Shown: positions 17,166-59,000 of the stretch, piece after piece
Layout: every line of letters starts with the position of its first letter
Position numbering within the stretch: the stretch's first letter is position 1
DNA from: Naegleria gruberi
Lineage: Eukaryota
DNA length: 64,000 nucleotides
Strand: one strand, 5' to 3'
Assembly (NCBI GenBank): GCA_000004985.1
Contig: GG738896.1
Translations under genes and position numbers: made by a program
Notes under the pieces: generated by a model
The model's database searches: none
The model's input: the letters and a program-made list of their open reading frames with translations, nothing else
What the model was told of the DNA's origin: nothing

Positions 17166-17210
17166 TTTAGACTTACCTTAGTGTGGAACATTAAGGTTTT
17201 ATAATAAATA

Positions 17211-17377
17211 GAATGAGATATTGTGCTTAACCGTGAATATTAAGGAATGAAATAAGCAAGAAAGCATTAGTAGTGTAACGGTATCATACCAGCCTTCCAA
17301 GCTGGTGACCCGGGTTCGACTCCCGGCTAATGCATTTCCTTTTGATTCTTGGTTTGCAGATTCCCTTATTATTGTTA
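17211..17377. repeat. Right arm of the inverted tRNA-Gly unit repeat (partner at 15618..15784)
   Basis: See the left-arm entry. The two arms face each other across the F-box-GTPase gene at 15913..17165. Confidence 0.7.
17264..17334 (+). tRNA. tRNA-Gly (anticodon TCC), copy B
   Basis: The 71-nt sequence is identical to the other three copies. Confidence 0.9.
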
Positions 17378-19062: not shown

Positions 19063-19160
19063 ATAATAATATACTAATAATTTTTGTCAAGCAACAGTAT
19101 TGTTGACTTCAATAAATCCTAAATATTAAATTAAAAAGAGAAATCTTTAAAAATCTCAAA

Positions 19161-19175
19161 TTTTGGCGCCAAAAG
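19161..19175. promoter_or_regulatory. Palindromic E2F-like element TTTTGGCGCCAAAAG, 11-25 bp upstream of the ATG at 19186
   Basis: A perfect 14-bp palindrome TTTTGGCGCCAAAA lies within an AT-rich intergenic region. Confidence 0.45.
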
Positions 19176-19185
19176 TCAAAAAAAA

Positions 19186-20760
19186 ATGTGGAATGCGAAT
19201 TCTCCTGCGCCATGCTCATCAGGATCATCGGTTGATCAGCAGCAATACAGTCCACTTCCCATCGCCTCTATTCAACAATTTACATCAACAGTAACTCATC
19301 ACGAATTTGTAATGCACTCATCAGAATTATTTGTCGAATTATTTTGAATTCCTGATCGTAAAAAGAAGAATAATTCTGATTATTTGGATGCATATTTCAA
19401 GTCTACAAAGTCTTTTGATGCAAACAAGTATCAATCACAGATTAATCCACAAATTGTACGTCAAGTCCAAATATCAAGTAATGGTATCTCAGATCATTGT
19501 ACAAATGTGCGTTCGTGGTTTATTGAAACCATCATGATGAGAATGGGTATTTTCCTACCTGAGAACATTTCGTTGGTGAAGAGAATTGGAGAGGGAGCTT
19601 ATGGCAGCGTGTATAGAATTGGTAAAGATAAAGTGTTGAAGATTGCTAAAGATGGTGAAGCCATCAAGAAGTTTGATCATCCATTATTGTTGAGTATTGA
19701 GAGGCTTTTTTGGTATGAAGCTGAGAAACTCTTGTTGATTGTTTCTCCATACTATGAATTGGGACATTTGAGAGGTCAATTCACATTAGGTCAATATTGG
19801 TCAATTCTTTGTAATTTGACAAATGCTCTCAAGTATTTACATTCCCAACAAGTTGTTCATAGAGATATCAAGCCAGCAAACATACTTGTAGAAAAAAAGG
19901 ACAAATTTGAAGTGAAAGTTGTTTTAGCTGATTTTGGATTGGCGAAATCGTTCGATTCTTGCAGTGCAGGAAGTGTAGGAACGACCTACTTTGTAGCTCC
20001 AGAATTAATGAAAGGTTATGATGGAGAACATAGTGCTAGAAGAAGAGTTGCCAATGAGAAGAGTGACATTTTTTCTCTTGGAAAGACTATTAGCGTTCTA
20101 ATTTTGAATGACAAACCTGAAGATTTGGAATTTAAGAAGGGGAATTCACTCACCGAATTGCTTAATCGTATGATGAAGTACAAGCCAGAGAATAGACCTT
20201 CGACTGATGAAATTATTTCAATATGTGAAATGGAGATTTCAAAGCTTTCAGAGACTGATTACAATGCAATTTTCAAATTATCCGACAATGATATTGAAAT
20301 ATTTGATGAAATGAGCTTTTACACTGAAAGTAGTTTGAGTGATGGTTTGTTGAAAATGTTAATAAGCGGAGAAAGTTCTCAAAGTCAATCTGCTGTTAAA
20401 CATTCATACACGTTTGATCTTCACGATGACGGTGTTGTAAATGCCAAGAAAATAATTCACATCAAGTGCACACCAGAGGCAAGATTGGCCATCGAATCAA
20501 TCTATCTCAGAATTTACAACACCAAATTCAATACAGGACTCATTGATGTAACCAATTGCTTGTCCAAATCAGTTAGAGAAATATCCAATGATAATGAAAA
20601 GAAATATGCCATCTCTGGTTCACAAAAACAATATCTCATTCCTGCCAAGTCGAAATATCAAAATGAAAAAGGAAAGGACACTATTGAATTGTATATTAAT
20701 AATAGGGATGAACATGTGGCTTCAGCCAATTATGTCGCCAAGAATAATAAAAATAATTAA
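19186..20760 (+). CDS. Ser/Thr protein kinase; the core exon 19366..20760 is certain and the proposed 5' exon 19186..19308 is tentative
   Basis: The kinase core is LVKRIGEGAYGSVYRIGKDKVLKIAK (GxGxxG and VAIK-like), HRDIKPANILV, DFGLAKS, GTTYFVAPE. The TTG-initiated ORF at 19384 has no upstream ATG. An upstream ORF from 19186 (MWNANSPAPCSS...THHEF) ends at a GTAATG donor at 19309. A 57-nt intron to the acceptor AG at 19364-19365 (or 19367-19368) keeps the frame. Confidence 0.6.
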
Positions 20761-20984
20761 TCGAATCCTAAGCTAATAAGAATCAAAAGGAAGTGCATTA
20801 GCCGGGAGTCGAACCCGGGTCACCAGCTTGGAAGGCTGGTATGATACCGTTACACTACTAATGCTTTCTTGCTTATTTATTTTCAACCGTAATGTTCCGG
20901 ATTAAGGGATGCAATATTTTCAATAATTATTTATTTCAATAATCTATTATTCAATTAAAAGTGGAATGACATGTCAGAGAACTT
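20702..20984. repeat. 283-bp direct repeat, copy 1. It spans the kinase C-terminal codons, tRNA-Gly(TCC) and the intergenic region through the 3' end of the RCC1 gene
   Basis: About 97% identical to 22902..23183, with a uniform 2200-bp offset. Confidence 0.85.
20794..20864 (-). tRNA. tRNA-Gly (anticodon TCC), copy C
   Basis: Identical 71-nt sequence on the minus strand. Confidence 0.9.
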
Positions 20985-21034
20985 ATTTATGAACATGAAT
21001 AATAATTCAATATTATTAATTATTACTAAAAAAA

Positions 21035-22714
21035 ATGAGCAAACGAAATAGACACAATTTTCCATTAATTCCGGAGAAGGAAATATTCAATAATAACACT
21101 CAAGCAAAAAAGAAAAAACTTGTACTCCATGAACAACGAGAAGAAATATTTTCAGATGATATTTGTTTTGAAATAATTTCCATGATTGATGATTCGTGGT
21201 TTATTTTAAATAATTGTACTTTAATTTCAAAACAATTCTTTAATGTGATCCGAGAACGTTCTAAACTTGTTATTCAATTTAAAAAAAAATTTACAGAGAA
21301 AAGAATTGAATTATTCATGAAAAGTCAATTCATGAATAGTATTGCTAATGTTAAATTTTCCGTTTACTCCTTAGACAATGCCAAATTCATAAGTGAAATG
21401 AAACAATTGACATCACTTGGTATTGCTGAAAATCGAATTGGTGATGAAGGAGTTAAATTCATAAGTGAAATGAAACAATTAACTTTACTTGATATATGTT
21501 GCAATGAAATTGGTGTTGAAGGAGCCACGTCAATAAGTGAAATGAAGCAATTAACATCACTTAATATTTCTGGCAATCGAATTGGTGATGAAGGAGCTAA
21601 ACTCATCAGTGAAATGAAGCAATTAACATTACTTAATATTGCTGACAACCGAATTTGTGTAGAAGGTGCAAAATCAATAAGTGAAATGAAACAGTTAACA
21701 TCACTTAGTATTTCTGACAACGAAATTGGTGTAGTAGGAGCAAAATTAATAAGTGAAATGAATCAATTAACATTACTTAATATTTCTAACAACGAAATTG
21801 GTGATGAAGGAGCCAAATTCATCAGTGAAATGAAACAATTGATATCGCTTGATATTTCTAACAATCTAATTGATATAGAAGGTGCAAAATCAATAAGTGA
21901 AATGAAACAGTTAACATCACTTGAGATTTATTACAATGAAATTGGTGATGAAGGAGTCAAATTCATAAGTAAAATGGAACAGTTAACATCGCTTGATATT
22001 TCTGGAAATCAAATTGGTGTAGGAGGAGCTAAATCAATAAGTGAGATGAAACAATTGACATTTCTTCAAATATTTTCCAATCGAATTGGTGATGAGGGAG
22101 CAAATTCAATAAGTGAAATGAAGCAATTAACATCACTTAATATTTATTACAATCAAATTGGTGATGAAGGAGTCAAATTCATAAGTGAAATGGAACAATT
22201 AACATCACTTGATATTGGTGGAAATCAAATTGGTGTAGGAGGAGCTAAATCAATAAGTGAGATGAAACAATTGACATTTCTTCAAATATTTTCCAATCGA
22301 ATTGGTGATGAGGGAGTCAAATTCATAAGTGAAATGAAGCAATTAACATCACTTAATATTTCTGGCAATCGAATTGGTGATGAAGGAGCCAAGTCAATAA
22401 GTGAAATGAAGCAATTAACATTACTTTACATTTCTAGCAACGAAATTGGTGATGAAGGAGTCAAATTCATAAGTGAAATGAAACAATTAACTTTACTTCA
22501 AATATATTCCAATCGAATTGGTGATGAGGGAGTCAAATCAATAAGTGAAATGAAGCAATTAACATCACTTAATATTTCTGGCAATCGAATTGGTGATGAA
22601 GGAGTCAAGTCAATAAGTGAAATGAAGCAATTAACATCACTTAATATTTCTAACAATCGAATTGGTGATGAAGGAGTCAAATTATTAACATCACTTAATA
22701 TTGTCTTATTTTAA
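21035..22714 (+). CDS. Leucine-rich-repeat protein (RNI-like, 24-aa repeats), intronless
   Basis: 559-aa ORF from the ATG at 21035. From about aa 120 onward there are roughly 18 tandem units of consensus ISEMKQLTSLNISGNRIGDEGAKS (72-bp DNA period). The N-terminus may contain an F-box-like stretch (ICFEIISMIDDSWFILNNCTLISKQFFNVI). Confidence 0.8.
   Translation: MSKRNRHNFPLIPEKEIFNNNTQAKKKKLVLHEQREEIFSDDICFEIISMIDDSWFILNNCTLISKQFFNVIRERSKLVIQFKKKFTEKRIELFMKSQFMNSIANVKFSVYSLDNAKFISEMKQLTSLGIAENRIGDEGVKFISEMKQLTLLDICCNEIGVEGATSISEMKQLTSLNISGNRIGDEGAKLISEMKQLTLLNIADNRICVEGAKSISEMKQLTSLSISDNEIGVVGAKLISEMNQLTLLNISNNEIGDEGAKFISEMKQLISLDISNNLIDIEGAKSISEMKQLTSLEIYYNEIGDEGVKFISKMEQLTSLDISGNQIGVGGAKSISEMKQLTFLQIFSNRIGDEGANSISEMKQLTSLNIYYNQIGDEGVKFISEMEQLTSLDIGGNQIGVGGAKSISEMKQLTFLQIFSNRIGDEGVKFISEMKQLTSLNISGNRIGDEGAKSISEMKQLTLLYISSNEIGDEGVKFISEMKQLTLLQIYSNRIGDEGVKSISEMKQLTSLNISGNRIGDEGVKSISEMKQLTSLNISNNRIGDEGVKLLTSLNIVLF
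21390..22690 (+). repeat. Intragenic 72-bp tandem repeat array (LRR units)
   Basis: The gtgaaatgaaacaattaacatcacttaatatttctggcaatcgaattggtgatgaaggagc... unit is repeated about 18 times with point variation. It produces spurious antisense ORFs at 21364..21720 and 22498..22680. Confidence 0.8.
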
Positions 22715-22901
22715 TTGGGTGTTTATTGAAACGCCTTAATCAATGATATTAATGAAGAAGGAGTTAAATATTAGAGAGACATGAAACAATTAATTGCTCT
22801 TGTTTAGTTCGTGTGATGGATCTTGACATGAACTTGATTGTTGACTTAATTTGTCTCTCATGGAATCAATGAAGTTACTAACTTTTTGTCATATATAGAC
22901 G

Positions 22902-23183
22902 ATAGGGATGAACATGTGGCTTCAGCCAATTATGTCGCCAAGAATAATAAAAATAATTAATCGAATCCTAAGCTAATAAGAATCAAAAGGAAGTGCATTA
23001 GCCGGGAGTCGAACCCGGGTCACCAGCTTGGAAGGCTGGTATGATACCGTTACACTACTAATGCTTTCTTGCTTATTTATTTTCAACCTTAATGTTCCGG
23101 ATTAAGGGATGCAATATTTTTCTTAAAATAATTATTTATTTCAATAATCTCAATTAAAAGTGGAATGACATGTCAGAGAACTT
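22902..23183. repeat. 283-bp direct repeat, copy 2 (includes a pseudo-fragment of the kinase C-terminus and tRNA-Gly copy D)
   Basis: 22903-22960 repeats the last 19 codons plus stop of the kinase gene (RDEHVASANYVAKNNKNN*). The sequence through 23183 matches 20702..20984. Confidence 0.85.
22994..23064 (-). tRNA. tRNA-Gly (anticodon TCC), copy D
   Basis: Identical 71-nt sequence on the minus strand. Confidence 0.9.
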
Positions 23184-34619: not shown

Positions 34620-35084
34620 ATGCAAACTCCAACAAAGGTCATCCTCTCCCATAGCATTCAACTTTCTGGTGTGAAATGCAGAACAACCAACAAGGACGAA
34701 ATGAATCCTTCCACAGCAAGAATTGGTCAACTTTGGGGTCAATTCTTCCAACAATCTACTCAACCAATTCAATCCAAAATTTACAGTGTCTATACCAACT
34801 ATGAATCAGACCATAATGGAGCATATGATATCTACGTAGCCACTCCATCATCAGAAAGCAATCGAAACTTGACCGAAACTATTCAAATTCCTCAAGAAAA
34901 TGATGAAGAATTTCTCGTCTTTTCAGGCAGTGGAAAGATGCCAGAGACATGCATTAACTTATGGCAGTCCATTTGGCAATATTTTGACAAGCACCACGTA
35001 GAATATTCACGTGCCTTCTCTCTCGATTTTGAAGAGTACGACGACAAGGAAAATGTTAAGATTTACATTGCATTGAAAAAGTAA
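34620..35084 (+). CDS. GyrI-like (SbmC/AraC effector-binding type) small-molecule-binding protein
   Basis: 154 aa with no intron. ARIGQLWGQFF...YSVYTNYESDHNGAYDIYVATP...EFLVFSGSG...NLWQSIWQYFDKHHVEYSRAFSLDFEEY is collinear with bacterial GyrI-like domains. Confidence 0.55.
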   Translation: MQTPTKVILSHSIQLSGVKCRTTNKDEMNPSTARIGQLWGQFFQQSTQPIQSKIYSVYTNYESDHNGAYDIYVATPSSESNRNLTETIQIPQENDEEFLVFSGSGKMPETCINLWQSIWQYFDKHHVEYSRAFSLDFEEYDDKENVKIYIALKK

Positions 35085-36043: not shown

Positions 36044-36989
36044 ATGTATGAAAAATACGTTTGGGGAGGATATCGTATGAACCTAAGTTTCAAGGAAGCA
36101 TTCTTATCAATATTCCAGATCAATAATGAAACTGTTAACAATTGGACTGCAATACTGTCGGCTTTGGTATTCTTCTACTTTACTATAGACGTCATCTTCT
36201 TCTGGGAACCAACTTTGATTGGAGAAACAAAGAATGGTTATTCTTCATACTTTAATCATGTTGTGAGTGAAAACTTTTTGGAAAAGTCCATGTTTGTGGT
36301 TTATTGTGTATCATCAATTATAACATTTGGTGCATCTTTATTTTACCATTGGTTCAGTTGCATGTCTGAGAGTGCTTTCCATACCTTGTTGAGAATTGAC
36401 ATTAGTTCCATTGCATTATTGATTGGTGGTAGTTGTAAGTTTCAATAATTCTTATTATGGAATATCTCTAACATTATTTTGTAGACTATCCTCCATTATA
36501 TTATGCATTCTATTGTACACAATCTGTTGGAGTTTTCTACATTTCCACAATTACAATCTTGTGTTTGAGTTGTGTTGCAATGTTCATCATTCCAAGATTT
36601 TCCAGAGAAGATTATAGACAATTTAGAGTTCGAGTTTTTGGATTTACTGCACTTTATGGTTTATGTCCACTAGTTCATATCATTTATCTTTATGGATTTG
36701 ATAATGACGCCCTTAATAATAGACTGTTAGGTATCATGTACATGTATTTGTGCTATGCTGCTGGTGTCTTTTTCTATAGTACCAAATTGCCAGAAAGATT
36801 ATGGCCTGGCAAGTTTGACATTTTCTGTCATAGCCATCAATTTTGGCACATTTTTGTCTTTTCGGTATGTAGTAGTTCTATATTTTTCTTCTTATTAACA
36901 ATTAATAGGCCACATTGCTTCACTTTTACAATTGTGTCTACATGAAGACAGAGTCTGGAGTTTGTTTTGCTCCTCTTCCAAATACTTAA
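36044..36989 (+). CDS. PAQR / adiponectin-receptor / hemolysin-III family 7-TM protein, at least 3 exons (36044..36434, 36485..36864, 36909..36989)
   Basis: YVWGGYR, NETVNNWTAIL (ETxNIWTHL-like), HSHQFWHIFVF and the C-terminal ATLLHFYN are PAQR hallmarks. GTAAGT and GTATGT donors at 36435 and 36865 join to AG acceptors at 36483-36484 and 36907-36908. Confidence 0.75.
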
Positions 36990-37217
36990 TTTATGTAAAC
37001 TATAAATATTTATTATTCACTTTAATAGAGATTGTTCATCTCCTTTTCGAAATGGTTACGCAATGGACTAACAAGAGAAAAGTTTTTGCATCATTGGTAG
37101 ATTGTTGTGTCAATACACATACAGACGTTGCTATTATATTGACCAAGACACTCCAGTCAATTGTGAATAAGAGAGATACAGAGACAAGCAAAAAAAACAA
37201 ACGCAACACATCATCAC

Positions 37218-38132
37218 ATGACATGGTCAGTTTTCTCTCCAAGAGGGAACAAATCAACAAGTAAGAAGAACACCGAAGAAATGATTGATAGACTAATATC
37301 AACAACACCTCAAGATGACAATAAGCTCACTCTTCCCAGTATTTCGAGAAAGCCAATGAAAATGGATTTTCGAGTAACTGAGAGAATTCAATCAAATGAT
37401 GTCAATTGCCCACCCCTCAGAGGATCACCAACAAGTAGTCGAAAGAAAAATTCTATGCTAAACGATATTCAAAAGAGGGATTTGGATGCAACCATTCATA
37501 GGAGGCAAATGCTCAAGTCAACCAATTCGAAACGTCTCCTCGATACATTCCAGAAAACTAAGAGCAGTAGAGAAGTTCTCAAACAAGATCCCTCATTTCA
37601 GGAAAAGATTTTGGAATACGAAACTATTCAACCCATCGATGAAATTCAAGAAGCCAAACAAAAGATCTTTTCTCAACTGGATGACATAAGGAAGAAATCG
37701 AGAAATAATTCACCAGAAAATTCTCATAATGATCGTACTGGCGGACAGGAAGTTCCAAATCTCAAAATTTCAACAATTATCCCAACAAATTCTATTGGAA
37801 ATGAAACTATTTCCACTCCAAAATCATCTTCCTTAACTGTTGCTCCAGACAACATGACACCAGTGAGTAAGAAAACCAAAAAGAAGAAGCCCAGAAGATT
37901 CGAGTCGATGAGTATTGAGGAATTGACTATTTCTGATACGGACGAAGGTAAAATGTATGCCTCTGATATTGGAAAGGAGAGTTTCAAAGTGATTTGTCAA
38001 GCAAGAAGAACACTCATCAAACAGAATAGTTACTTGCAAGAAATGGATGGATATCAATCAAGTATTAAGGAAAAATTAGAAAGGAACCGAAACTTGCTGA
38101 AACCCTATTCAAATCAGAATCCTTCAGAGTAA
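37218..38132 (+). CDS. Hypothetical Ser/Lys-rich protein
   Basis: 304-aa ORF from the ATG at 37218. Low complexity, no known domain. Confidence 0.4.
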   Translation: MTWSVFSPRGNKSTSKKNTEEMIDRLISTTPQDDNKLTLPSISRKPMKMDFRVTERIQSNDVNCPPLRGSPTSSRKKNSMLNDIQKRDLDATIHRRQMLKSTNSKRLLDTFQKTKSSREVLKQDPSFQEKILEYETIQPIDEIQEAKQKIFSQLDDIRKKSRNNSPENSHNDRTGGQEVPNLKISTIIPTNSIGNETISTPKSSSLTVAPDNMTPVSKKTKKKKPRRFESMSIEELTISDTDEGKMYASDIGKESFKVICQARRTLIKQNSYLQEMDGYQSSIKEKLERNRNLLKPYSNQNPSE

Positions 38133-38559
38133 GATTCTATACACTTTATTGTTGTATTCTTCTTCTTCATTGTAAATATTTAAAAGATAATTCAGGATAA
38201 TCATACTTTTCCAGAATATCGACACCATCTGATGTATTATACAAAGTATTGAATGGGAATTCACCGAATCTAAAACTTCCACTAAGAATTTTCAGTCTGA
38301 ACAATAGAACCTAAATATTCCATTTGAAGCTATTTGATTGGATTTTACAATTCCAAACAAACATCAAATGGATTAATCGATTTTCCCGCCTCAATCGGAA
38401 TTATTTACAACTATTAATGGCCATTGAGAGGATTCAATACTACACTTTAAACTTTCAGTTGAGTAAGAACTTGTTGTATTATGAAGAGTGACTTGCTTTC
38501 TCTCTTCACTGACCCAATCTCACTACAACTTCTGACACCAGACAGCTGACATCTACGGC

Positions 38560-38567
38560 TATAAAAA
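38560..38567 (+). promoter_or_regulatory. TATA box (TATAAAAA) about 45 bp upstream of the ATG at 38612
   Basis: ggcTATAAAAAcctggcaatgcgcg precedes the start codon of the secreted K-rich protein. Confidence 0.35.
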
Positions 38568-38611
38568 CCTGGCAATGCGCGAATCATATCCAAACATCAA
38601 CAAGAAAAAAA

Positions 38612-40123
38612 ATGAACAAAATCTTCTCACTCTGCTTACTCGCATTGTTCTGTGCAGTTCTTTTCTGCGCTTCCACTTCTGAAGCCTTGAGCGTCATCAA
38701 AACCGTTCAAGCAAAGGCTGTCCCTGCCAATAAACCAAAACAACAAAAAGGAAAGAAATTTGGTAAACTCTTGAAGAAGGGTGCTTCCAAGAAGCAAATT
38801 AAGAAGGCTGCTAAGAAAGCTATCAAGAAATCAAAGAAGGAATTGAAGAAGGCTACCAAGAAGGTTAAGAAGGCTGCTAAGAAGAATCTTGCCAAGTGGA
38901 GAGCTTTGTGGGCTAAGTATAAGAGAATTGCTCAACGTGCTTTGAGAAAGTTTAGAAGAACTCAAAGGTAAGTGTCATGTCATTCGTGTTGACAATTAAC
39001 GAATAATTTTATTTGTTATCCTCTCTCTCGCTTGATGACTAAATTACGGAAAATATTCGAATGTTTATTATCATCATCATTTTGATTAACATACAACAAC
39101 AATTTGTGGACAATTTGTGTGATCATCATGTTGGAATGTCATGACTTTACAATATATTCTAAACGTATGATTAGAAAGTTGAAGAGAGCTCGTAGATCTG
39201 CTTCCAGAAAGACTGTTAGAAAGTTGAAGAAACAAGCCAAGAAGGCCAAGAAGACTGCCAAGAAGGCCCAAAAGAAGGTCAAGAAGGCTTCCAGAAAGGT
39301 TAAGAAGGCTAAGAAGCAAGTCAAGAAGGCTGCTAAGAAAGCTGCTAGAAAGCTCCAAAAGAAGGCTGCTAGAAAACTCAAGTTGAGCAAGACTTCTATC
39401 AAGAAACTCAATGCTACTGTTAAGAAGTTGTTAAAGTTGAAGAAGAAGTTGGGTAAGAAGTTCTCCAGAAAGTCAATTCCTGCCAAGATTAAATTGTTAG
39501 CTGCCAAGTTGAGAATTATTAAGAAGTGTAAGATTTCAAAGAAGTCTGCTGCTAAGAAGGCAAAGAAGGTTGCTGGTAAGAAGACTGCCAAGAAGGCCAA
39601 GAAGCAAGTTAAGAAGGCAAAGAAGGCTGAAAAGAAGGCTAAGAAGCTCGTCAAGCAAGCTAAGAAGGCTGCTAAGAGTGGAAACAAGAAGGCTGCCAAG
39701 AAGATTGCCAAGAAGGCTATTGTCAATGCTAAGAAGTCAATTGAAGTTGCCAAGAAGTCAGTTACTGTTGCTAAGGTTGCTGTTGAAAAGGCCAAGCAAG
39801 TTTTCACTACTATTGTCAACAAGCTTAAGGAATTAGTCAAGAAGGCTCAAATCACCGTTCAAACTGGTAAGACTACTGAAATCAAGAAGATTCAAAAGAA
39901 GGTTGAAGTTGTTAAGAAGACTGTCAAGAAGGCCAAGAAGAATGTCAAGAAGGCTCAAAAGAAGGCTAGAAAGGTTGTTAAGAAGGCTAAGAAGGTCATC
40001 AAGAAGGCCAAGAAGGTTCAAAAGCAAGCCAAGAGAGTTCTCAAGAATAAGGTCACTAAGAAGGGTATCAATAGACTTGTTAACAAGTTGATTAGACTCC
40101 AAAAGTGTTCCAAGAAGAACTAA
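38612..40123 (+). CDS. Secreted lysine/alanine-rich polycationic protein, 2 exons (38612..38967, 39175..40123), about 450 aa
   Basis: Signal peptide MNKIFSLCLLALFCAVLFCASTSEA. The rest is KKAxKK-type low complexity. The exon-1 frame ends at a GTAAGT donor at 38968 (phase 2). The acceptor AG at 39173-39174 continues the same KKA repeat frame of the 39104 ORF (…RTQ-R-KLKRARRSASRK…). Confidence 0.6.
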
Positions 40124-40399
40124 ATTGATGACTAGTTTTTGTATATAAATCACCTCCATATGCTACAGATGTATATTAATGTGGTATAACCAAATAATAT
40201 TGAGTTATACTTTATCAACTGTGCAATAATTGTGTATAGTTCCAATAATAATAAATCAACCTATTTGTAAATCTTGTTTTGTTTTTCCCGCCAAATTTTT
40301 TATAAAATTATAAAAAAATGCCATTACTTGCATCCCACAACAACATTGTGTTCAATTTGAAAAGCATCGGAAGAGAATGAAAAACATGCTGCTTATCTA

Positions 40400-40545
40400 T
40401 CGGCAAACGGCAAGTCGTCGTTGGGTGGATTGGAATGAATTCAGTCTCCCTCTAGGCTTCCTGTGATAACAAAATACCCCATGGTCTTGCATTTAGCCGC
40501 AGCGGCCCTCCCGACTCACGTCATGGTCGCCTCCTGAGAGATCAA
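40400..40545. ncRNA. GC-rich island, candidate structured ncRNA (class not identified)
   Basis: About 145 nt at roughly 55% GC (ggcaagtcgtcgttgggtgg...gccgcagcggccctcccgactcacgtcatggtcgcctcctgagag) inside a 550-bp AT-rich convergent intergenic region. No ORF. It contains GTGATAA (C-box-like) and CTGA (D-box-like), but no convincing terminal stem was found. Confidence 0.2.
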
Positions 40546-40678
40546 CATTATCTTTTTATTATGTACTGGATTTTACTGTGGAATGCATGTTTACAAGAGG
40601 GAGAAATTCGAATAAGAGTACCAGTTGCAATTATTTCTTTGAGTTTTTAAACAGTTTCTGATTCTATTCCTTCAGAAA

Positions 40679-42037
40679 CTATTGAACTAACATTGGTTGG
40701 TTGATTGATGGATGAAGGTGTCGATTCATCCCTAAGATCACCATAACAGATGAAATTCTCACAGGATTAGTTGATGAAGATGGAAGAACACTCTCCTTTC
40801 TCTTCATGACATTGGATCCAACAATTTCATCCTTCTTTTCCAAAATAACTTTTGTTGAGTATTTGAGTTCTTGCATAACAAATTGAACTGGATGACTCAA
40901 AACTGGTAATCTGTAAGGCCAGAAAATCAAAATAACACACAATGCAAAGGAAACATCAGGAATAGCCTTAACCAGTGGATAAATCACATAGCTCGGTAAA
41001 TCAATTGCATAAATAGCAACAGCAACCAATCTAACAATAACACCAATACCCAAAATAACTACAGCAACTGTCAATTTAACAATGGTTTGTTTCTGGAGAA
41101 TGTACAATTCACCATCTTCAGGTTGACTCTTTGAAGTGGCTTTAATCATGTGAATGATAATGGCAACACAAGCAATACTCATAGCAAGAACTGCCAACAC
41201 AGCCAATCCACCCAATGGAGCAGCCATTCCATACATTAAATAACGTCTTGTCTTTTCATAATCAATGGTTGGATGAGCCAAAGCCAAAATTGCCATCACT
41301 ACCAATGGTGCCAATCCAACAAATGCTGCAATATTACACAAAATCAAAATAACATAAATTGTAATGGTGATGGCCTTCTTTTTGGTGGTCTGACCCATCC
41401 AAGACATACAGACCTTCAACCAAATCGGCAAAATCAGTGTGTAATTAAACAGGTACCAATAAATTGAAATGTAATCGAAAATTCTTCTCACTTGTTTTGT
41501 TGTTTCAAAATCACTCTCAATTCTCTGCAATTCAAATACGTGTTGAATAATAGTCACAATTTCATGTCCAATTCTCATCAGGTAAAACACCAACAAGGAG
41601 TGTAACAATAAAAAGAAGAAACCTTTCGACTGTGTCTTTTGATTATTCTTCTTTTCATCAACTTTCACAAATCGTTTCAATAACCTCACTGGCCATGTAC
41701 TATCCTGTAAATCTCCCTTCTTTCCACAAAGTCTAGAATTAATAATCAACCAGCCCAATAACCATGATTCTCTCTTGATGTAAACAATCAGAGTTGGAAT
41801 GTAGAGTAGAATAAATGCAAGTAACGAGATGGAATCAATGACTAGATTGGCTGTTGATTCGCCCACTGAAACCCATTTAACTGTTGAATTTGTTGCTGTT
41901 GTTTGAGTTGTTGCAAATAGAGAGATTCCTTCAAAATTATTCGAATCTGGATACATGTTGTTAGTGGATGGGATTGTTGAGGAGAGAATAGAATGAGTTA
42001 GTTGAGCGGTAAAATACAATGCATTTGAAAAGTCCAT
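40679..42037 (-). CDS. Multi-pass (at least 7 TM) membrane protein, family unassigned
   Basis: 452 aa with seven or more hydrophobic helices (for example LLAFILLYIPTLIVYI, FFFLLLHSLLVFYLM, LAPLVVMAILALA, GGLAVLAVLAMSIACVAIII, LTVAVVILGIGVIVRLVAVAIYAI). Confidence 0.55.
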   Translation of the reverse strand: MDFSNALYFTAQLTHSILSSTIPSTNNMYPDSNNFEGISLFATTQTTATNSTVKWVSVGESTANLVIDSISLLAFILLYIPTLIVYIKRESWLLGWLIINSRLCGKKGDLQDSTWPVRLLKRFVKVDEKKNNQKTQSKGFFFLLLHSLLVFYLMRIGHEIVTIIQHVFELQRIESDFETTKQVRRIFDYISIYWYLFNYTLILPIWLKVCMSWMGQTTKKKAITITIYVILILCNIAAFVGLAPLVVMAILALAHPTIDYEKTRRYLMYGMAAPLGGLAVLAVLAMSIACVAIIIHMIKATSKSQPEDGELYILQKQTIVKLTVAVVILGIGVIVRLVAVAIYAIDLPSYVIYPLVKAIPDVSFALCVILIFWPYRLPVLSHPVQFVMQELKYSTKVILEKKDEIVGSNVMKRKESVLPSSSTNPVRISSVMVILGMNRHLHPSINQPMLVQ

Positions 42038-45562: not shown

Positions 45563-46830
45563 TTATAATTGTTCTTCTTGTTGTTTTTGTTCTTCAGTAG
45601 TGTATTCATAAACATAATCAGTAATAATTTCCTTAGCTTCATCAGATAAATATTTAGAAATTGCTTTCTGGTCAACTTTAGCGAGAGAATCCCACTCATT
45701 CGAATGTTCCTTCTTGAAATCTGCCAAAATATCCTGAACAAACAAAGCCAAACACTTATTTCTCAATTTAAATGAAGTGATAATATTACCAATTTTGGAA
45801 ATGGCAGATTCCAATCGATTATCATTCAAATATTGAACTATTAAATCGAATACTGGAGTGGAAACAGATTCATTATCAAAGGTTGGCTTTTTGGTTTTTT
45901 TTCTAGGTCTTGGTGGCTTTTTTGGTTGCACAACTTCCTTAAATGCTTCATTCTTCTTCTTGATAATAAATCGTTCTCCCTTTTCCTTTGTGAACATATC
46001 TCTGATTGGCTTAATAACCACTCCTTCACAGATATTTGGACATGATTCAACGAGTGGGAGGTTGTAGAATAATTGTGGAATTTTGGTTGGATAATTGCAA
46101 TCGTATTCTAAACATTCTTCCAAAGTTCCTCTCATCACTTCTTTGGCATATCGAGAAATTCCACATTCAGTGAGTAATTGAATCATCTTGTCATAGGCCA
46201 AATAGAATCCTTCTTCCTTCTTTGTTTCTACATTTAATCCAAATACATAGACATCGAACATATAGAAATCATAATCAGGAGTATAATACACATGTTTTTG
46301 AATTGGATATCTTCCTTTTACATTTTCTATTTGATCATGAGGATATTGACCTCCAAAACTATTTCAAGAATTCCAAAATAAATAAATTTTACACTTAAGG
46401 ACACTTACATTTCTCCATAGAAATTAGCTCTTCTCACCTTAAAATTATCATTCGAATAGATATCACAAATACTCTTAAAAACCTTCTTTATCTGTTCCTC
46501 ATATCTATTCCTCACAATCTCCACAGCCTCAGGAAAGAAATCGTCATCTTCATGAGGTGATTTTTTCTTCTTTTGTTTTTCCTCTTCATCCAATCCAACA
46601 TATTGTCTTCGGGATGCAACCTGGCATTGAATATCTTCCACAAGACACGAATTGGCAGTCTGATAATTATCCCTCCACATTACAAAACTAAAATTACATC
46701 CATGAATCTTTTCAGAGACAACCCAAGGAATTGATGGATCATAATTCTCATCACGGATTAAATTCTTGGCAAATTCTTGATAGTGATTCTCGATGGAACT
46801 GTACGCTTTGAAATGATGTTGATTCTTCAT
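45563..46830 (-). CDS. Rnl2-family ATP-dependent RNA ligase-like protein, 2 exons (46830..46409, 46358..45563)
   Basis: Motif I VVSEKIHGCNFSF is like KIHGTN of T4 Rnl2 and kinetoplastid REL1. The minus-strand GTAAGT donor at 46408 and AG acceptor at 46360-46359 (50-nt intron) join ...ANFYGE-I-FGGQYPHDQIENVKGRYPIQKHVYYTPDYDFYMFDVYVFG. Confidence 0.65.
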
Positions 46831-50408: not shown

Positions 50409-51314
50409 TTAAGCATTGAAACCAGCAGCTCTAACAACTTGTGCAGAGGTGTATGATGAAACACTGAATCCAGAATCATTAACTTCGAAAACACCATTAG
50501 AGTAACTCTTAGCCAAAACCCAATGTCCACCATTTCTGACGTTCAAAATGACAACCTTTCCTTGACAGACCCAATTGATAATAGCTTGCTTATCAGTAGT
50601 TTGTCCAAGATAATTGAATCCAAGTCTAGAAACAGCTCCCCAAACAAACAAATTTCCATAATAACCTCCATTCTTCAACAAGTATTGGTTCAATTGACCT
50701 GGGTTCATTGAACTCTTTCCTCTACCATTCAAAGCAGAACAAACTGAATTCATCAAACAACCAACTTGACAAATAGTGGAAGAACTTCCAAGTCTATCAC
50801 CACCCCATCTAGAATCACATTGTTTAAAGAGTGGATAATTGTAATTTTGTCTACAACCAGATGTAGAACCACCACCACCACCTCCATTTTGAACAACAGT
50901 TAAGAAATTAGAGGCAGCATAACCAGTTCCAAAACTACCAGAAACCTTATACCAAGTATAACCACATCCACTTTGGACTTCACCAGTGAATTTGACAACT
51001 TGACCATTTCCAAGAGTAGTAATAATTGATTTACCAGTGCATGGTCCACTTCTGACATTCAAAGCAGTGGTTGCTTTCAAGGAAGCTCCACTAGCAATTG
51101 ATGAATCAGATTCGGCATCTGACATTTCGAAATCTTCTTCAGATTCGGATTGAACACTTTGAATGGCATTAATTGGAAGATCAATAGCGAAATTGGTGGC
51201 CAATGAAGGTTCTCCAACCAATTTGACACTTCTATTGTTTGGATAAGCACGTTGACAAGAGACAACGACAGCAAATGTCAAGAGCAATAAAATTCCCACG
51301 AAGATTTTGTTCAT
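50409..51314 (-). CDS. Secreted bacterial-type cell-wall hydrolase-like protein: signal peptide, SH3b domain, Gly linker and papain-like C39-type cysteine peptidase domain
   Basis: The ATG at 51314 starts MNKIFVGILLLLTFAVVVSCQ (signal peptide). The SH3b-like segment is LNVRSGPCTGKSIITTLGNGQVVKFTGEVQSGCGYTWYKVSGSFGTGYAASNFL. A GGGGGGS linker follows. The peptidase module has Cys in QVGCLMNSVCSAL and His in NGGHWVLA, then NDSG. No intron. Confidence 0.6.
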   Translation of the reverse strand: MNKIFVGILLLLTFAVVVSCQRAYPNNRSVKLVGEPSLATNFAIDLPINAIQSVQSESEEDFEMSDAESDSSIASGASLKATTALNVRSGPCTGKSIITTLGNGQVVKFTGEVQSGCGYTWYKVSGSFGTGYAASNFLTVVQNGGGGGGSTSGCRQNYNYPLFKQCDSRWGGDRLGSSSTICQVGCLMNSVCSALNGRGKSSMNPGQLNQYLLKNGGYYGNLFVWGAVSRLGFNYLGQTTDKQAIINWVCQGKVVILNVRNGGHWVLAKSYSNGVFEVNDSGFSVSSYTSAQVVRAAGFNA

Positions 51315-51729
51315 TTTTTTTGTGATGATTTTTTGGCAGTTGAAAGGTTGAATATTAAAATCAAATTGCTGCTCAGCCAATACGGATAATAAACATGAAC
51401 GAGATGGTAATGAAAGAATAAAAATAGAATGTTAAATAATTGGGGCATTATGATATTGAGGGGGCATTGAAACGAATCGAATAGAAAATGTGCATTTATT
51501 CCAAACAAAATACTAAGTGATGCTTGAAAGGTAATCTTGCGCTGGAGTAACCGACAACATGATCTTGAAATGCATGCTTGTTGTTTGAAGAAGGTGGTTA
51601 TTGTAATAGTTTGTGATTGTTCAAATGGATGTTAGATAGAGAAATTTCAATCTTTTTGCATCTACAGTTCTATCAAATAACTTCTTTCCAATATTCGAAT
51701 AAGATTTTTACAAAATATACAATAGGATT

Positions 51730-53037: not shown

Positions 53038-56000
53038 TTATTCAACCTTAGATGATTGCTCTGATTGTTCTAGAGAGAGGGATCTGAAAATAGGGAAGAA
53101 GGAAGTAACATCATCATTGTCTTCACATCGATCGTAAATGTATTGTTCTGTACCTGTGAATTCAGTCACTGATTTTTGGTAGAGGTAAATTAAAAAGTAG
53201 ACATAATTCCACAAGTAGTGTTCCTCCTTGACATGCTTTTCAAAGGTGATACCTTCATTGGCTCTTGTATCGAATTTAGTTCGTTCCAATCCACAAATAA
53301 AACACTTATCTCGAATGTCCTTCTTTCTGTCTTCTCTTTCATTTCTCAGTACTTCAAACGAATCGAGAATGACACCAAACACAACGTTAACAAGTAACAC
53401 AATAACTATCACTAAAAAGGAAAGGTCAAGTATGGCTCTCTGAACTGAAACATTTGGATCATAAATATCCTCCCAAAAAGATTCTCCTCTAAAGCCATAA
53501 TCCAACATGGTCACATAGCAAGCTAACATATCTTCACATGTCTTGTCGCCTGTCTTGGAGATTTTAAAATCTGAAGAAAAGAAGGTAAAATAGAGTGTAC
53601 CAAAGAAGAATAAGGCAATACACAACAACATTCCTGTAAAGAACAAACGTTTCACATTCGAAGTAACTGATTTCAACACATCGGTCAATGACTTGAAGAT
53701 GTAAACCATTTCAAAAAGCTGTATCGAGTAAATAATTGGAGTTATCAACAATCCAATCACAGAGACTACAATGTAAATAATAAAATACCAAATTTGAGAA
53801 TCTTGTATGGTATATAAAAAGCATTTGGTCATAAAATCAAAATCTCTTGGAATTGAGTCCCACGTTTCGTTTTTCTTTAGCTTGAATCGTTTCTTCACTT
53901 CCAACGTCAAGAAGAGTGATACATAAATGACAAATAGAATTACCAGGAAAATCAATTGTGTCACACCAACAATAATAAGAATTATATCACTTGCAAGATT
54001 TCTAGGTGCTGTAGTTTTGGTGAGAGCATATACATCAAAGTCACTGCCAGGTAAAGGTATTTGAGAATACTCTGTTGTTGCATAAATTCTCTTAAATGTT
54101 CCCAAAACAATAATATTAATAATAACAGAGAGGAAGAATGAAGACAATCTCAAGTAATCCCACCAATTGGCAATATATTCCCATGATGCTGTTTTAACCT
54201 CTTGTTTCTTCTTTTTCTTTCGTTTTGCTAGCAAATTGCTGGTTGTGGCAACGAGAGACATTGAAGGCAAAAGATTTTCCATTTCCTCCTCTGGTTCCTC
54301 TTCTTCTTTCTTGTTGAGATTCGGAATAGTAAAAGTCTTTTTCATATTTTCATAGTGACACATTTCCACATAGAATGTACTGAATGTGTCATTGTACAAT
54401 TTCCTAACTTTTTCTTGTGGAGTCATTACGTGCAACGAATTGGCATAGTTGCTTCTTGCCTTATCGATAATATTGTTACATATTGTTGGTTTGGGAAAGT
54501 AGATCTTTTCAAGTACGTTATTTCTCAATACTTCAATGCTACCAGTTCTTTGTTTGAAATAAGAGAGCTCCTTTGAATTGGTTTGGAAAAAGTTGGCTAC
54601 TCTTGATTCCTCTTCCAAAGCTTGAGTACCCTTTCTGAATTCAGTCTCACTGTCCCTGATCATGGAGAGAAGGAAAAAGATGTGAGTTCCCAAGTCATCG
54701 TATTGCAATCTAATCTTCTCGAGATTGTCCTCCATATAGTCGTCGACACGGATTGGCTTCTTTGAACTCTTCTCAGATTGATACAAAACATGGAATCCAA
54801 AGTCTTTACGCATTCTCTTTTTGAGTCTTTCAAGATCATCACAATCATCATGGTTATTACCCGATAGAGTTTCGAACAATCTCAAAATGTACAATAATTT
54901 TTGTTCAAAATCATCCAAATTCAAAGAATTTTTCATGAATTCTAATGTGACTGTGTTTCTTCCTTCCAATAGAGATATTAAGAAGAGTGTAATTTCCTTC
55001 TTGAGGTCAAGCTCTTGTTCCTTCAACAACTTGCTGTCATCGTAGGTCTTACTCATGATTTCATTGATAAGTCTTGGATAAATCTTATTGGATGTACCAA
55101 TTAAATTTTGGTTAAAGACAGCAGGTCCTTGGACAAATTCGGTCAGGGTCTTAAAACCTTGGATGGCTACTTGAACATTGTCTGCATCCAATTTCTTTTC
55201 CAAAGCAATCAAATATTCAATAATTTCCGTAATTAAATCAAAGCTGAAAATATTTCTTGGTTGATGTTTCAATAGGGCTTGATTTTTGGTATTATGGCCT
55301 TCACACAATAATCTCAAAAATTCCATAGTGTTAAAAATGAATCCCTTTTCTACAAATTCCACACCAACTTCATCTTCTTCGTTATCATGGTCAGCATTGA
55401 GGTTAGTTGTAGACTTTTTCTGGTTAGCTAGTGCCAACTCCTTGTCTCTCTTTTTCTTCAAGTGATTCTTCATTTGTTTGATTTCAATCTTTGAGAGACG
55501 GATTCTGTCTCTAAGAGACATGAAAAATTCGGTAGAGTCTTGATCTGTAAGAAGCGAATAAATATGATTCTGAACGTCAAGATCTCCGTCATTCAATATT
55601 AAAATACCAAGCTCCAAAGCTGATTTTGCAATTTGATGGTGGTTAGAGTTGAGGAATTCAATAACTACCTCAGGAATTTTCTTTTCCACCAAATCTAATT
55701 TAAGAGTTGATTCTTCGGTTTGTTGGTTTTGCCTTTCAACAATACTCTTCAAAATATCCATACCAAAGAGTCCTACCTTCATGTTCTGAAGAAGTAAACC
55801 AGAACTATTCAAGTCACGTAATACATTGACGAGTGTTTTGATAAATCCATCATATTTGATAAATATGGCAGCAAGCTCTGAAAAGTTGGAAAAGTTTCTA
55901 TTAATCTTGGAAATTATTCTGTCTTTCAAGTACTTTTTGTATGTGTTGTGGATAAGTTCGTCCTTCTCGGTACTGGTTGATGTTTGTATTCTTGATCTAT

Positions 56001-59000
56001 GTACCTTGGCTTTAGTGGCCTTATTTGAAATGAAATTAGAAATTGCTTTCTGACTAGTTGAAGACATACTTCTCTTCAACATGGCCTGAATACATTTGAG
56101 AACTTTATCCCTATTCTCTGGATTTGGTGTATGTTTGTGAAGTTCTATGAGTTTTATCAACAAATCTTCTGCAATATCCAACTGTTCTTTTGTCAGATTT
56201 GGAGGTGGGAAGTGGAGATGGAAATAATCTCTCACACAAGGAATCATAATATCAAACAAATAGGTATTATCAACTTGATAGGTTTCTTGATCTTCCTCAC
56301 TAGGTCCAACGACTTTTGGAAGTGCTACAGAGTATGTTTTCGAAGATCGTTTGGAAGCAGTTGTTGACAATCCACGGTTTTTGGTTGGAGTAGCAAACAG
56401 TGAAGTGTTTGAGAGGGTTTTGCTTGGTGTTGTTGGGGTTCGAGTATGGGCATGCATAATACTTTGTCTTTCACCTTTTTGTGTGGATAAAATCAAGTCG
56501 TTACCATCTGATTCATTTGAATAGGTCATTTCTAACACTTCCAATTCAGTAACCATTTTAGAGAATAACTTGAAAAGCATTGGATGATGAACATTTACCA
56601 TCTTGCTCTCAGATTCTGTAGAGTCATCTGATGCCTTTTCAACATTCAAGTAAATTTCATCAATAACTTTAACCAATGGATTTCTCAATACAGGTAGAGT
56701 ACAACAAATAACTTGTTCTAAAAGTTCTTCATAGCTGTAGAGGGTTTGTAATTTAAGCTCACTCTCTCTGTTTTTACCATCAGCAAGAGAGGCCAACAAG
56801 TATAAAAGGGCAATGTGATAATTTAAAATACCATCTGGTTCAGTTTTGTGTTCACCTTTGATAATTCTTTGATTACGTTCTCTGAGACCTTCTTCGTCTT
56901 TGAAAAGAATCATAATGTCCTTCTTTCTTTCGAGCAGATATTTGGTAATGAGTGATTGGTTTCGTTTGATTGGATTGCCATTATTTGTTCCCAGAATGAC
57001 ATGCAAGAACAACAACATGAAAGAGCAAGGTTGCTCAGCAATTTGGTCAATGTAGTGTTCGATTAATTTTTCTTCAATAGTACTGCACAGACCTCTATTG
57101 TCTCTTACCATTTCACAAAGGAGAATGACAATCTTCTTATCTAGACTTCTATTCTCACCAATAGTGTGAATAAAGAATTCCAATTGTTTGAACATAATCT
57201 TTTGATTGTCTTGATTTCCTCTAACAAAAGCAATTAAAATATCAATACCAATCTCTTCAATTTCCTTGCTCACAATATAATCCTTCTTGAGGAATGTGAG
57301 AATAATATCATAAATGAAGAGATTTCTCACTATTCTTTGTGATCTTTGACCATTCTTCTTGATATCTGATAGGATTTCATTGAGAGCTTTTAGGACTTTT
57401 TTCTCTTCCTGTTCTGTGAGTCTTCTAGTACCAAAATAATTGCTTTGACCATAACCAAAAACAGATCGCAACTCAACTACCTGTGAAAGTAGCAAATCGT
57501 AGGATTTAGCCATTTCTCTCGAAACGATAAGTTCAATCTTTGGAAGAACTTCACATAATTCTTGAGCAGATCTGTACTTTCTAATTAGTAAATCAAGGCA
57601 GGTTGTAGCGAGTTCCTTATTTTCATATTTGGTCAGCGAAAGAATTTTAACATCGAATCGATCCATCTTGTTGAAAATAACATCCTTTTCGAGAATATCT
57701 TTGATTACAGCATATTCATTAGAGTCAATTTCGGCAAGTCTTTTCTGTTGTAAAGCTCTATTGTCCATTGGTATCACCTCTTGTTCTCTAAGTACAGTCT
57801 CAATCTCTTCCTCTCTGTATTTCTTCCAAAAGAATTGCAAGAATTTTGTCACTCTCTTGTCTAAAATAATGTCTAGAATCATGTGGAAGATGGAAGCAAT
57901 TTCAATTTTGATCTTCATGAGGGTTAAATTTTCTTCTACGTTTTTGTGTCTTTCTTCCTCACTAAGAATTCTACCATCCTTCTTGTCATTATCTCCTCTG
58001 AGCATATCAAAGAGAGAATTCAACAAATCACCCTCCTCAAAGTCTATCAATGTAAGAACTCCAAATTCCAACATTCTCTTACACATAATTACAACGTATA
58101 ATGTAAAGTTGTTGTGATCCTTCTTTTCTAAAGACACATCCAAGCTAACATTCTCTCTAAGGAATTTCCCTAAAAAATCTTTGATTTCTGCCAAATCCTT
58201 TGAGTTGCCGTCTTCTTTTGATCTTTGATTGAGAGTACTGGTTTTTCTGGTGTAGTCAATCAGTGGTTTCTTTTCTCTCTTCTCCGTATCAATGAAAGTT
58301 TGGATCAAAAGCTTTACAAATGATGTTCTGACGGCTGGTGTTAAATTCTTATCAGAGACACATTTGTGGACAACTTCGTAGGTGAACAGAGAAACAACAG
58401 ATCTTCTCGCATCCTCAATTTCTTCATTTCTTCCTGTACAGAGGGCAGCAAAAAGACGAATTTCCTCTTGGAAGAAGATGAGTTGTTCATAATTTGGTCT
58501 TGTGTATCCATTGTATGTATCATCTGTTGCAGACTGAGAGAAACTAATCAAGTCTATTTCATCATGATTGACTTCTACCACAACCTTGTCTTCATTGTTA
58601 AGCTTTGGAATGATAAAAACTCTTCTCAATTGGTCCTTATATTTTGAAAAAAGCAAATTACCAATATATACCTGATTTTTCACCACAGTTTTACCTTCAC
58701 AAATGATCAAGCTAGTCAAAAAGGATAAATAGACAGCCTTCTTCAAGCTCTTGGAACTTTGTCGCATACCAATCTTTGATGTGTTTTCAAAGAGAAGCTT
58801 GACGAAAAAGTCAATTTGTGACTCGGTAATCTTGTTCAAAAGTGGATAATTGTTGGATAAGATTTCCAACAGAGCTTCACTTGCAGCAATGCTATGTTCA
58901 ATCAGAGTTTGGATAAAGTTGATATATTGTGCCATGTAGAGACCGTTAGATTCGTTTGAAAGGACAAACTGTCTAATGAGTCTGAAGGAGTACTGAACCA

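Follow-up and report, generated by a model that had tools for sequence, protein, structure and literature searches.

We analyzed a plus-strand locus at positions 38612 to 40123 of a 64,000-nucleotide (nt) window of the Naegleria gruberi genome (assembly GCA_000004985.1, contig GG738896.1), where two lysine-rich open reading frames (ORFs) lie in tandem; all positions below are those of the window. The explanation that we favor overall, with a probability of about 0.5, is that this locus, here called the lysine-rich gene, encodes a real secreted polycation that would act on polyanionic bacterial envelopes. The parts of this explanation differ in strength. We are highly confident that the locus is a genuine protein-coding gene in which a signal peptide is joined to a polycation. 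It is very likely that the gene yields a single spliced product of 434 amino acids (aa), and the sequence suggests that this product is probably secreted or luminal. We infer splicing, secretion, and function alike for this gene.

The ORF listing of the window contains both ORFs on the plus strand as the original prediction described them (ORF1, 38612 to 38971; ORF2, 39104 to 40123). Excision of a predicted GT-AG intron of 207 nt (38968 to 39174) fuses them in frame into a spliced coding sequence of 1305 nt. The single two-exon protein proposed in that prediction is thus retained, with its length revised from about 450 aa to 434 aa. The features of the locus are as follows (slashes mark cleavage or splice points).

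38560 to 38567, plus strand: candidate TATA box TATAAAAA, 52 nt 5' of the start codon, a putative promoter element
38612 to 38967, plus strand: exon 1, with the start codon (gaaaaaaaATG), the signal peptide, and the first 94 mature lysine-rich residues; ends in phase 2
38612 to 38686, plus strand: predicted signal peptide, residues 1 to 25 (MNK-IFSLCLLALFCAVLFCA-STSEA/LS), read from the sequence
38900 to 39220, plus strand: arginine-rich module, residues 97 to 134, spanning the splice junction and holding 12 of the 21 arginines
38968 to 39174, plus strand: predicted spliceosomal intron, 207 nt, donor AAG/GTAAGT, branch-like TTCTAAAC, acceptor ATTAG/A
39139 to 39840, minus strand: mirror ORF of 233 codons, rich in F, L, and A, a by-product of the repeat and not a gene
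39175 to 40123, plus strand: exon 2, residues 119 to 434 and the TAA stop codon, encoding predicted lysine-rich amphipathic helices
40250 to 40255, plus strand: candidate polyadenylation signal AATAAA, 127 nt 3' of the stop codon

Several frames of the AAG-rich repeat are open, so ORF length alone proves nothing here. We therefore rest the case for a gene on codon choice and on sequence variation. Avoided codons (GTA/GTG, ATA, ACA/ACG, CAG, AGG/CGA/CGG/CGC, and GCA/GCG for V, I, T, Q, R, and A, respectively) were counted across the window. They make up 2 of 134 such codons in exon 2, the lowest share in the window, and 3 of 45 in exon 1; most window ORFs lie near 30%, and the other five frames of exon 2 range from 13 to 42%. 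AAG accounts for 91% of the lysine codons in the lysine-rich gene versus 23 to 63% in other genes of the window, where a comparable codon bias was found only in a calponin-homology gene and one other ORF. Strong codon bias is a sign of heavy expression in many microbes, and the protein is probably made in large amounts. The preference for AAG over AAA also fits the known stalling of ribosomes on AAA lysine runs.

A second haplotype was available in a metagenome contig (L003; European Nucleotide Archive accession ERZ929261, run ERR1078381) and in a Logan contig from the same run (L004), both of which carry the lysine-rich locus at about 98 to 99% identity. Relative to L003, exon 1 has no differences in 356 nt, and exon 2 has six single-nucleotide polymorphisms (SNPs) in 949 nt (0.63%), of which five are synonymous and one is the substitution K269R; despite the tandem repeats, exon 2 contains no insertions or deletions (indels). 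The predicted intron diverges by 1.9% (2 SNPs, with indels of +3 and −2), the 5' flank by 2.5%, and the 3' flank by 4.0%, with nine indel events in total. Neighboring genes give the same exon-like pattern, with 8 synonymous and 2 nonsynonymous differences in an upstream ORF (orf304) and 4 and 2, respectively, in a THH1/TOM1-like gene (THH1). The lysine-rich gene appears to be under clear purifying selection. Its start context, TATA box, donor, branch, and acceptor are intact in both haplotypes, the candidate TATA box being identical with SNPs and indels around it, and the A-run context at its ATG is common to most starts in the window.

The minus strand of the repeat holds mirror ORFs of 233, 108, 90, and 62 aa, in agreement with the expectation that repeat DNA of this kind would open the opposite strand. 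The longest opens with TTG and has no internal methionine, hence no ATG in frame. As judged from the sequence, the start codon, the signal peptide, the splice signals, and the codon bias favor the plus strand.

Composition, helical pattern, and proposed action

The whole protein is 35.9% lysine, 15.0% alanine, 8.1% valine, 7.4% leucine, and 0.7% proline. Its computed isoelectric point (pI) is 11.8, consistent with the predicted value above 11, and that of the mature part is 12.0. The mature chain of ~409 residues is 38% lysine and carries 176 lysines and arginines against 7 acidic residues, for a net charge of ~+169. The only prolines are 3 of the 434 residues, at positions 38, 42, and 221; mature-chain cysteines are C237 and C430, and a single N-glycosylation sequon (NAT) lies at 198. 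There are five KR/RR pairs and one furin/kexin-type R-x-R-R motif (RARR/S, 39185 to 39196) just past the exon junction, at which cleavage is speculation. The description of the chain as almost entirely KKAxKK repeats was overstated: the arrays are imperfect, and three stretches are less lysine rich (R-rich, residues 97 to 134; L/I-rich, 190 to 240; V/T/I-rich, 300 to 350).

At the DNA level, the repeats form imperfect arrays of 21, 42, and 63 nt (7, 14, and 21 aa) plus one short 33-nt array, and the units are heptad based, for example KKxVKKA. Basic and hydrophobic residues alike follow a single dominant period of 3.65 residues (power of 5.7 versus a maximum of 2.6 in 300 shuffles). AlphaFold2, run on the single sequence, predicted a nearly all-helical chain with a mean predicted local distance difference test score (pLDDT) of 77 and a predicted template modeling score (pTM) of 0.42. 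Its eleven helical elements comprise residues 3 to 36 (the signal peptide), a short element at 49 to 55, and nine helices from residue 60 onward (60 to 127, 130 to 186, 191 to 211, 222 to 236, 241 to 251, 254 to 286, 290 to 344, 352 to 409, and 414 to 433), with predicted interruptions at G/S/P/T sites. The five longest of these (33 to 68 residues) have hydrophobic moments of 0.46 to 0.66, which are 4.2 to 6.9 standard scores (z) above shuffles, and present a narrow nonpolar face composed chiefly of Ala, Val, Leu, and Ile. In the model, then, alternation of basic and small hydrophobic residues (A/V/L/I) would give long amphipathic helices.

These properties are compatible with the following scheme. 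The lysine-rich chain would enter the endoplasmic reticulum (ER) and from there reach the phagolysosome, the cell surface, or the medium. While free, it would be kept largely unfolded and expanded by its charge of ~+169; on a polyanionic surface, the charge would be neutralized and helices would form, so that the chain might lie flat with its lysine face down and its narrow Ala/Val stripe buried. For an amoeba that feeds on bacteria, the most likely targets would be bacterial envelopes (lipopolysaccharide [LPS], teichoic acids, and anionic lipids), and the outcome would be the capture or agglutination of prey bacteria and their permeabilization. Cutting at the few KR/RR sites, including RARR/S, could yield shorter cationic helices. 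Fast-evolving defense effectors commonly lack detectable relatives. Naegleria itself makes antimicrobial polypeptides of the secretory pathway, the naegleriapores. Given bacterivory, naegleriapores, heavy codon bias, and the lack of relatives, bacterial-envelope binding is the action that we favor, and as a function, binding of bacterial envelopes or of polyanions is a tentative assignment.

Several observations weigh against this reading. A chain with a charge of +169 may be a poor substrate for translocation, and the signal peptide was judged by eye from the sequence. The helices come from a single-sequence AlphaFold2 model, and idealized helical sequences receive high scores from it in any case. 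At a mean ⟨H⟩ of −0.1 to −0.75, the hydrophobicity is very low and falls below that of typical membrane-lytic peptides; with the Ala/Val face, it points to general polyanion binding, not lysis. The codon bias could descend in part from amplification of a repeat unit that was already biased. The codon position of the SNPs fails as a test of the sense versus the mirror frame: third codon positions fall on the same nucleotides in both, and the SNP pattern is equally compatible with either frame. Lastly, the spacer between the two ORFs, ~195 nt, falls within the same-strand gene spacings of the window (175 to 480 nt).

The low hydrophobicity would fit an adhesive, cyst-matrix, or polyanion-packaging role equally well. 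In the corresponding alternative, the same spliced and secreted protein is a natural polylysine-like glue that holds the amoeba to negatively charged substrates, a component of the cyst wall or of pore plugs with affinity for acidic polysaccharides, or a counter-ion for polyphosphate or other acidic polymers in secretory organelles. The signal peptide, the charge of ~+169, and the low hydrophobicity favor electrostatic binding over membrane insertion, C237 and C430 could form a disulfide or cross-link, and the NAT sequon is available. Lysine-rich secreted matrix proteins are also known elsewhere, as in the mollusc KRMP proteins. However, Pfam and NCBIfam searches of the lysine-rich protein detected no carbohydrate-binding domain or cyst-wall family signature, it has no Tyr/DOPA-rich adhesive motif, and a gene used only in encystment would not specifically be expected to have a growth-type codon bias. 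We consider this alternative unlikely.

The boldest form of the preferred explanation, that of a secreted polycation acting on bacterial envelopes, spans part of both readings. The protein might be a bulk-made, secreted, helical equivalent of poly-L-lysine, ~45 kDa in size, that arose in the N. gruberi lineage by recent expansion of AAG/GCT heptad-coding repeats, serves extracellularly or in the phagosome to capture, clump, and permeabilize prey or as a surface glue, and has been missed by annotation and by tryptic proteomics. Tryptic proteomics would miss it because trypsin cuts a 38%-lysine chain into fragments too small to identify. As a whole, this picture is a doubtful one that we offer as conjecture.

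Exon junction and N terminus

Since exon 2 is AG rich, many GT/AG pairs formally keep the frame, yet only one donor, AAG/GTAAGT, matches the consensus, and it coincides exactly with the stop codon of ORF1. Past the branch-like element (39157 to 39164), the first AG is that of the acceptor at 39174, the use of which restores the frame. Introns were judged by a GTAAGT-type donor, a branch-like CTAA(C/A) 10 to 15 nt before the first AG, restoration of the frame, and a length in the local range; the predicted intron has all four of these characteristics of N. gruberi GT-AG introns. As a local comparator, an HlyIII-family gene 2.5 kb upstream contains introns of 230 and 50 nt, both with GTAAGT donors, the shorter one with CTCTAAC 13 nt before its AG, and its spliced product aligns to the orthologous loci. 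The proposed 207-nt intron is therefore typical for this genome, as far as these nearby introns indicate. Its length differs between the two haplotypes (207 versus 208 nt), which argues that it is not read as protein. Because the arginine-rich module runs across the junction, with residues on both sides of it, one continuous polypeptide is favored. The intron joining the two ORFs, as originally proposed, thus gains support from the consensus donor at the ORF1 stop, the in-frame acceptor, and the nearby comparators.

Against a spliced product stands the possibility of two genes: one for a secreted lysine-rich peptide of 119 aa (38612 to 38971) and one for a 318-aa lysine-rich protein from ATG 39167, without a signal peptide, that would stay in the cell as an H1-like binder of nucleic acid, ribosomes, or the nucleolus. 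ORF1 does end in a true stop codon, the proposed acceptor does lie 8 nt past an in-frame ATG of ORF2, a spacing of 195 nt is possible by the standards of the window, and prokaryote-style gene callers split ORF1 from ORF2 on the metagenome contig. In contrast, a consensus donor lies precisely over that stop codon with the joined frame open, and the arginine-rich module crosses the junction. The ATG at 39167, the sole one in ORF2, lacks the A-run context, and the only TATA-like element before it lies 9 nt off. The extreme codon bias is common to the two ORFs. Even under this arrangement, the first gene would remain a signal peptide fused to a polycation. Two separate genes are improbable on this evidence.

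The signal peptide itself is independent of the intron call, since it shares exon 1 with the first 94 lysine-rich residues. The N terminus, in which a basic n-region (MNK) precedes a 17-residue hydrophobic core and S and A occupy positions −3 and −1, reads as a cleavable signal peptide of ~25 residues, and on its n-, h-, and c-regions it fits the signal peptide first proposed. The first nine residues past the core have a net charge of −1, and the first lysine pair does not occur until residue 48, so that the translocated side is uncharged near the core.

The hydrophobic segment could also be an uncleaved signal anchor or go unused. The protein would then be tethered to the membrane with its polycationic domain on the cell surface or, less likely, facing the cytosol, as does the basic ribosome-binding domain of the ER protein p180. 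For a cleaved signal, a core of 17 residues is rather long, and by the positive-inside rule the huge downstream positive charge could favor a cytosolic C-terminal part. However, the basic N-flank and the net charge of −1 just past the core favor C-terminal translocation, the residues at −3 and −1 fit signal peptidase, and membrane spans are typically longer than the core, at 19 to 25 residues. Retention of the segment is accordingly a poor prospect compared with cleavage and release of the polycation.

Distribution, locus, and window

No relative of the lysine-rich protein was detected in any collection searched. A word-indexed protein search returned no match to the full protein or to its least biased 181-aa segment, and when 1.84 billion representative proteins were searched exhaustively with phmmer, the sole match was the exon 1 ORF itself, from the metagenome contig. 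By exact look-up, the 434-aa product (both alleles) and ORF2 from its ATG were absent from a collection of 15 billion proteins. The same look-up found nothing for the mirror ORF; ORFs with a TTG start are uninformative in it, as their first codon was read as leucine. Scans of Joint Genome Institute (JGI) metagenomes with a peptide pattern and a degenerate DNA pattern also yielded no relative. No protein with the lysine-rich sequence appeared under the N. gruberi name in the searched collection, the reference annotation of N. gruberi probably lacks a model for the gene, and we found no description of such a Naegleria protein in the literature. In a local control, a self match or exon-level match would score E = 1e-59 to 1e-209; composition filtering therefore does not explain the absence of close matches, while composition correction may still hide diverged lysine-rich orthologues.

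The locus was compared with its counterparts in two other species, aligning window positions 36950 to 40680 with positions 8061 to 10001 and 7806 to 10001 of the two orthologous contigs (L001 and L002, respectively). HlyIII and THH1/TOM1-like genes are neighbors in N. gruberi, Naegleria lovaniensis, and Naegleria fowleri. The pair is convergent in N. gruberi, where it flanks orf304 and the lysine-rich gene; in N. lovaniensis and N. fowleri the two genes are divergent and enclose a DOPA-dioxygenase gene. The 21-kb loci of the latter two species contain no lysine-rich ORF within 10 kb and no similarity to positions 36950 to 40680. By this comparison, the lysine-rich gene appears to lie at a lineage-specific point of rearrangement or insertion, within a segment that the N. 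lovaniensis and N. fowleri loci lack.

That absence, the lack of any homologue or N. gruberi entry in the collections searched, and the openness of other repeat frames would suit a young ORF of little or no function, an AAG-rich repeat behind a chance hydrophobic start, but we regard this as very improbable given a codon bias in V, I, T, Q, R, and A that is frame specific and the strongest in the window, a slippage-prone repeat with no indels and a 5:1 synonymous excess beside indel-riddled flanks, and gene signals preserved in both haplotypes.

Provided that the protein is expressed and leaves the cell, it would count as a natural polycation of unusual purity, encoded by a gene and secreted, helical and nearly proline free at a charge of ~+169. 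It would then represent a new type of effector for free-living amoebae, whose small antibacterial and adhesive toolkit centers on saposin-like pore formers and hydrolases, and a clean case of a lineage-restricted gene that arose by codon-repeat expansion under purifying selection. The gene also illustrates blind spots of annotation pipelines and of tryptic proteomics, and its sequence is a possible template for recombinant polylysine-like materials. Little follows if the gene is instead one of the many ordinary low-complexity genes of protist genomes that have no relatives and play a minor part.

The immediately upstream ORF, orf304 (37218 to 38132, plus strand), encodes a 304-aa protein rich in S, T, and K; Pfam gives it no match, and neither the N. 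lovaniensis nor the N. fowleri locus holds a counterpart. It has no indels relative to the second haplotype and looks like a real lineage-specific gene. Just downstream, the ORF at 40679 to 42037 (minus strand) is 100% identical to an NCBI entry named "predicted protein [Naegleria gruberi]" and 58 to 60% identical to N. lovaniensis and N. fowleri proteins. The window is accordingly N. gruberi nuclear DNA, governed by eukaryotic rules (ATG starts and spliceosomal introns); a yeast origin, to which GC content and gene density might point, is excluded by this identity together with the tyrosine-kinase-like gene and the inositol trisphosphate receptor-like channel of the window. The source of the second haplotype, ERZ929261 and the Logan assembly of ERR1078381, is labeled as a metagenome and holds N. 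gruberi-like DNA ~98 to 99% identical to the window. Several indels in the 5' flank and the intron separate L003 from L004, so the run must contain at least two haplotypes or strains; it is usable as population data for N. gruberi.

The window as a whole is ~33% guanine plus cytosine (GC) and densely packed with ORFs, among them tyrosine-kinase-like and leucine-rich repeat (LRR) genes and a Ras/F-box gene, and it holds seven tRNA genes. These include tRNA-Lys(CTT), which decodes AAG, at 4951 to 5023, and four tRNA-Gly(TCC) genes within 7.4 kb (15660 to 23064) among protein-coding genes. At 34620 to 35084 (plus strand), an ORF of 154 aa has a Cass2/GyrI-like "integron-associated effector binding" domain (E = 1e-19), a bacterial-type small-molecule-binding domain that was possibly acquired horizontally. 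An ORF at 45563 to 46291 (minus strand) carries the T4 Rnl2-type RNA ligase domains PF09414 and PF18043, of a phage/bacterial-type enzyme family. An ORF with a bacterial SH3_3 domain at 50409 to 51380 (minus strand) uses 7 avoided codons in 110, among the lowest shares in the window; it may be highly expressed and perhaps binds bacterial cell walls. Finally, an intronless gene at 53038 to 60819 (minus strand) encodes a channel of 2593 aa resembling inositol trisphosphate (IP3) and ryanodine receptors, with Ins145_P3_rec, MIR, RIH, RIH_assoc, and Ion_trans domains.

Comparison with known systems

At E ≤ 10, the only Pfam matches to the lysine-rich protein were Alanine_zipper, HisKA_3, and FUSC, all under their cut-offs. 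At the same threshold, the linker histone family PF00538 was not matched, its winged-helix globular domain was not found, and the Pfam apolipoprotein, LEA_4, and synuclein families gave no match. NCBIfam returned no AlgP or Hc1 model at E ≤ 10 and only Ala_zip_lipo, under its cut-off. Sequence and fold searches of the Protein Data Bank (PDB) gave only weak matches, to designed helical bundles, with every fold match at E > 0.05.

The lysine-rich protein had first been likened to histone H1 tails and bacterial AlgP, and that likeness is one of composition only. Histone H1 tails, AlgP, and chlamydial Hc1/Hc2 share with it very high lysine and alanine contents and an extreme pI, and all of them are expected to bind polyanions and to gain helix in doing so. 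In contrast, these proteins are intracellular, proline rich (SPKK, KPAA/AAKP), and largely disordered, whereas the lysine-rich protein has a predicted signal peptide, three prolines, a coherent amphipathic pattern of 3.65 residues, and no profile match; scanned for SPKK and KPAA units, it contained none. The scarcity of proline, the lack of such units and of profile matches, and the predicted helical pattern in place of a disordered tail all speak against a closer likeness.

Closer in probable mode are cationic amphipathic helical antimicrobial peptides and their precursors, a class that includes the designed peptides (KLAKKLA)n and (KIAKKIA)n, cecropin and magainin, the precursor of candidalysin, Ece1 of Candida, and the naegleriapore precursors. 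A net positive charge and an amphipathic-helix pattern, two features of such peptides, are present in the lysine-rich protein, which shares with them lysine-based charge and, as read from the sequence, a predicted signal peptide, and heptad-like amphipathic helices, and whose dibasic KR/RR sites could release shorter peptides as in antimicrobial precursors. It differs in length (a mature part of ~409 residues versus 12 to 50) and is far less hydrophobic, with an Ala/Val face and in places four lysines per heptad. It also lacks an acidic pro-region and bears no sequence or fold relation to the saposin-like naegleriapores.

A period near 11/3 (3.67 residues) is shared with apolipoproteins, alpha-synuclein, perilipins, and group 3 late embryogenesis abundant (LEA) proteins, which are built of 11-residue repeats. 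As in those proteins, the register is held over long stretches (55 to 68 residues), a pattern suited to helices that rest flat on a surface. However, 11-residue-repeat proteins are zwitterionic or mildly charged, in contrast to a mature chain with only 7 acidic residues, and the DNA units here are of 21, 42, and 63 nt rather than the 33 nt of 11-residue repeats, save in the one short 33-nt array.

Among adhesins, the K/A-rich tail of mycobacterial HBHA binds sulfated glycans. HBHA and laminin-binding protein resemble the lysine-rich protein in having extracellular K/A-rich adhesin tails; the HBHA tail is of ~40 residues and contains proline, and there is no homology. The best profile matches, at residues 352 to 407, were to the alanine zipper of Lpp/OprI and reflect an Ala/Val heptad core flanked by lysines. 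The scores were under the curated cut-offs (18.1 versus 23.1 bits for PF11839 and 19.4 versus 43 bits for NF040598). Lpp and OprI are bacterial lipoproteins, unlike the eukaryotic lysine-rich protein, which has no lipobox; what is shared is heptad chemistry, not family. Exported lysine-rich repeat proteins of Plasmodium bind the erythrocyte periphery (PMC5207086). They share with the lysine-rich protein tandemly expanded, lysine-rich, low-complexity repeats, export, and an anionic target. Their repeats are short modules in larger proteins, whereas the lysine-rich protein is nearly all polycation, and no homology links them.

By sequence, the lysine-rich protein is a member by homology of none of these systems. 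In its probable mode, and by analogy, it would stand nearest to lysine-based amphipathic antimicrobial helices, to surface helices with an 11/3 period, and to the exported Plasmodium repeats. It is best placed in a known broad kind, that of secreted lysine-rich low-complexity proteins and cationic amphipathic helices, within which it is unusual in degree.

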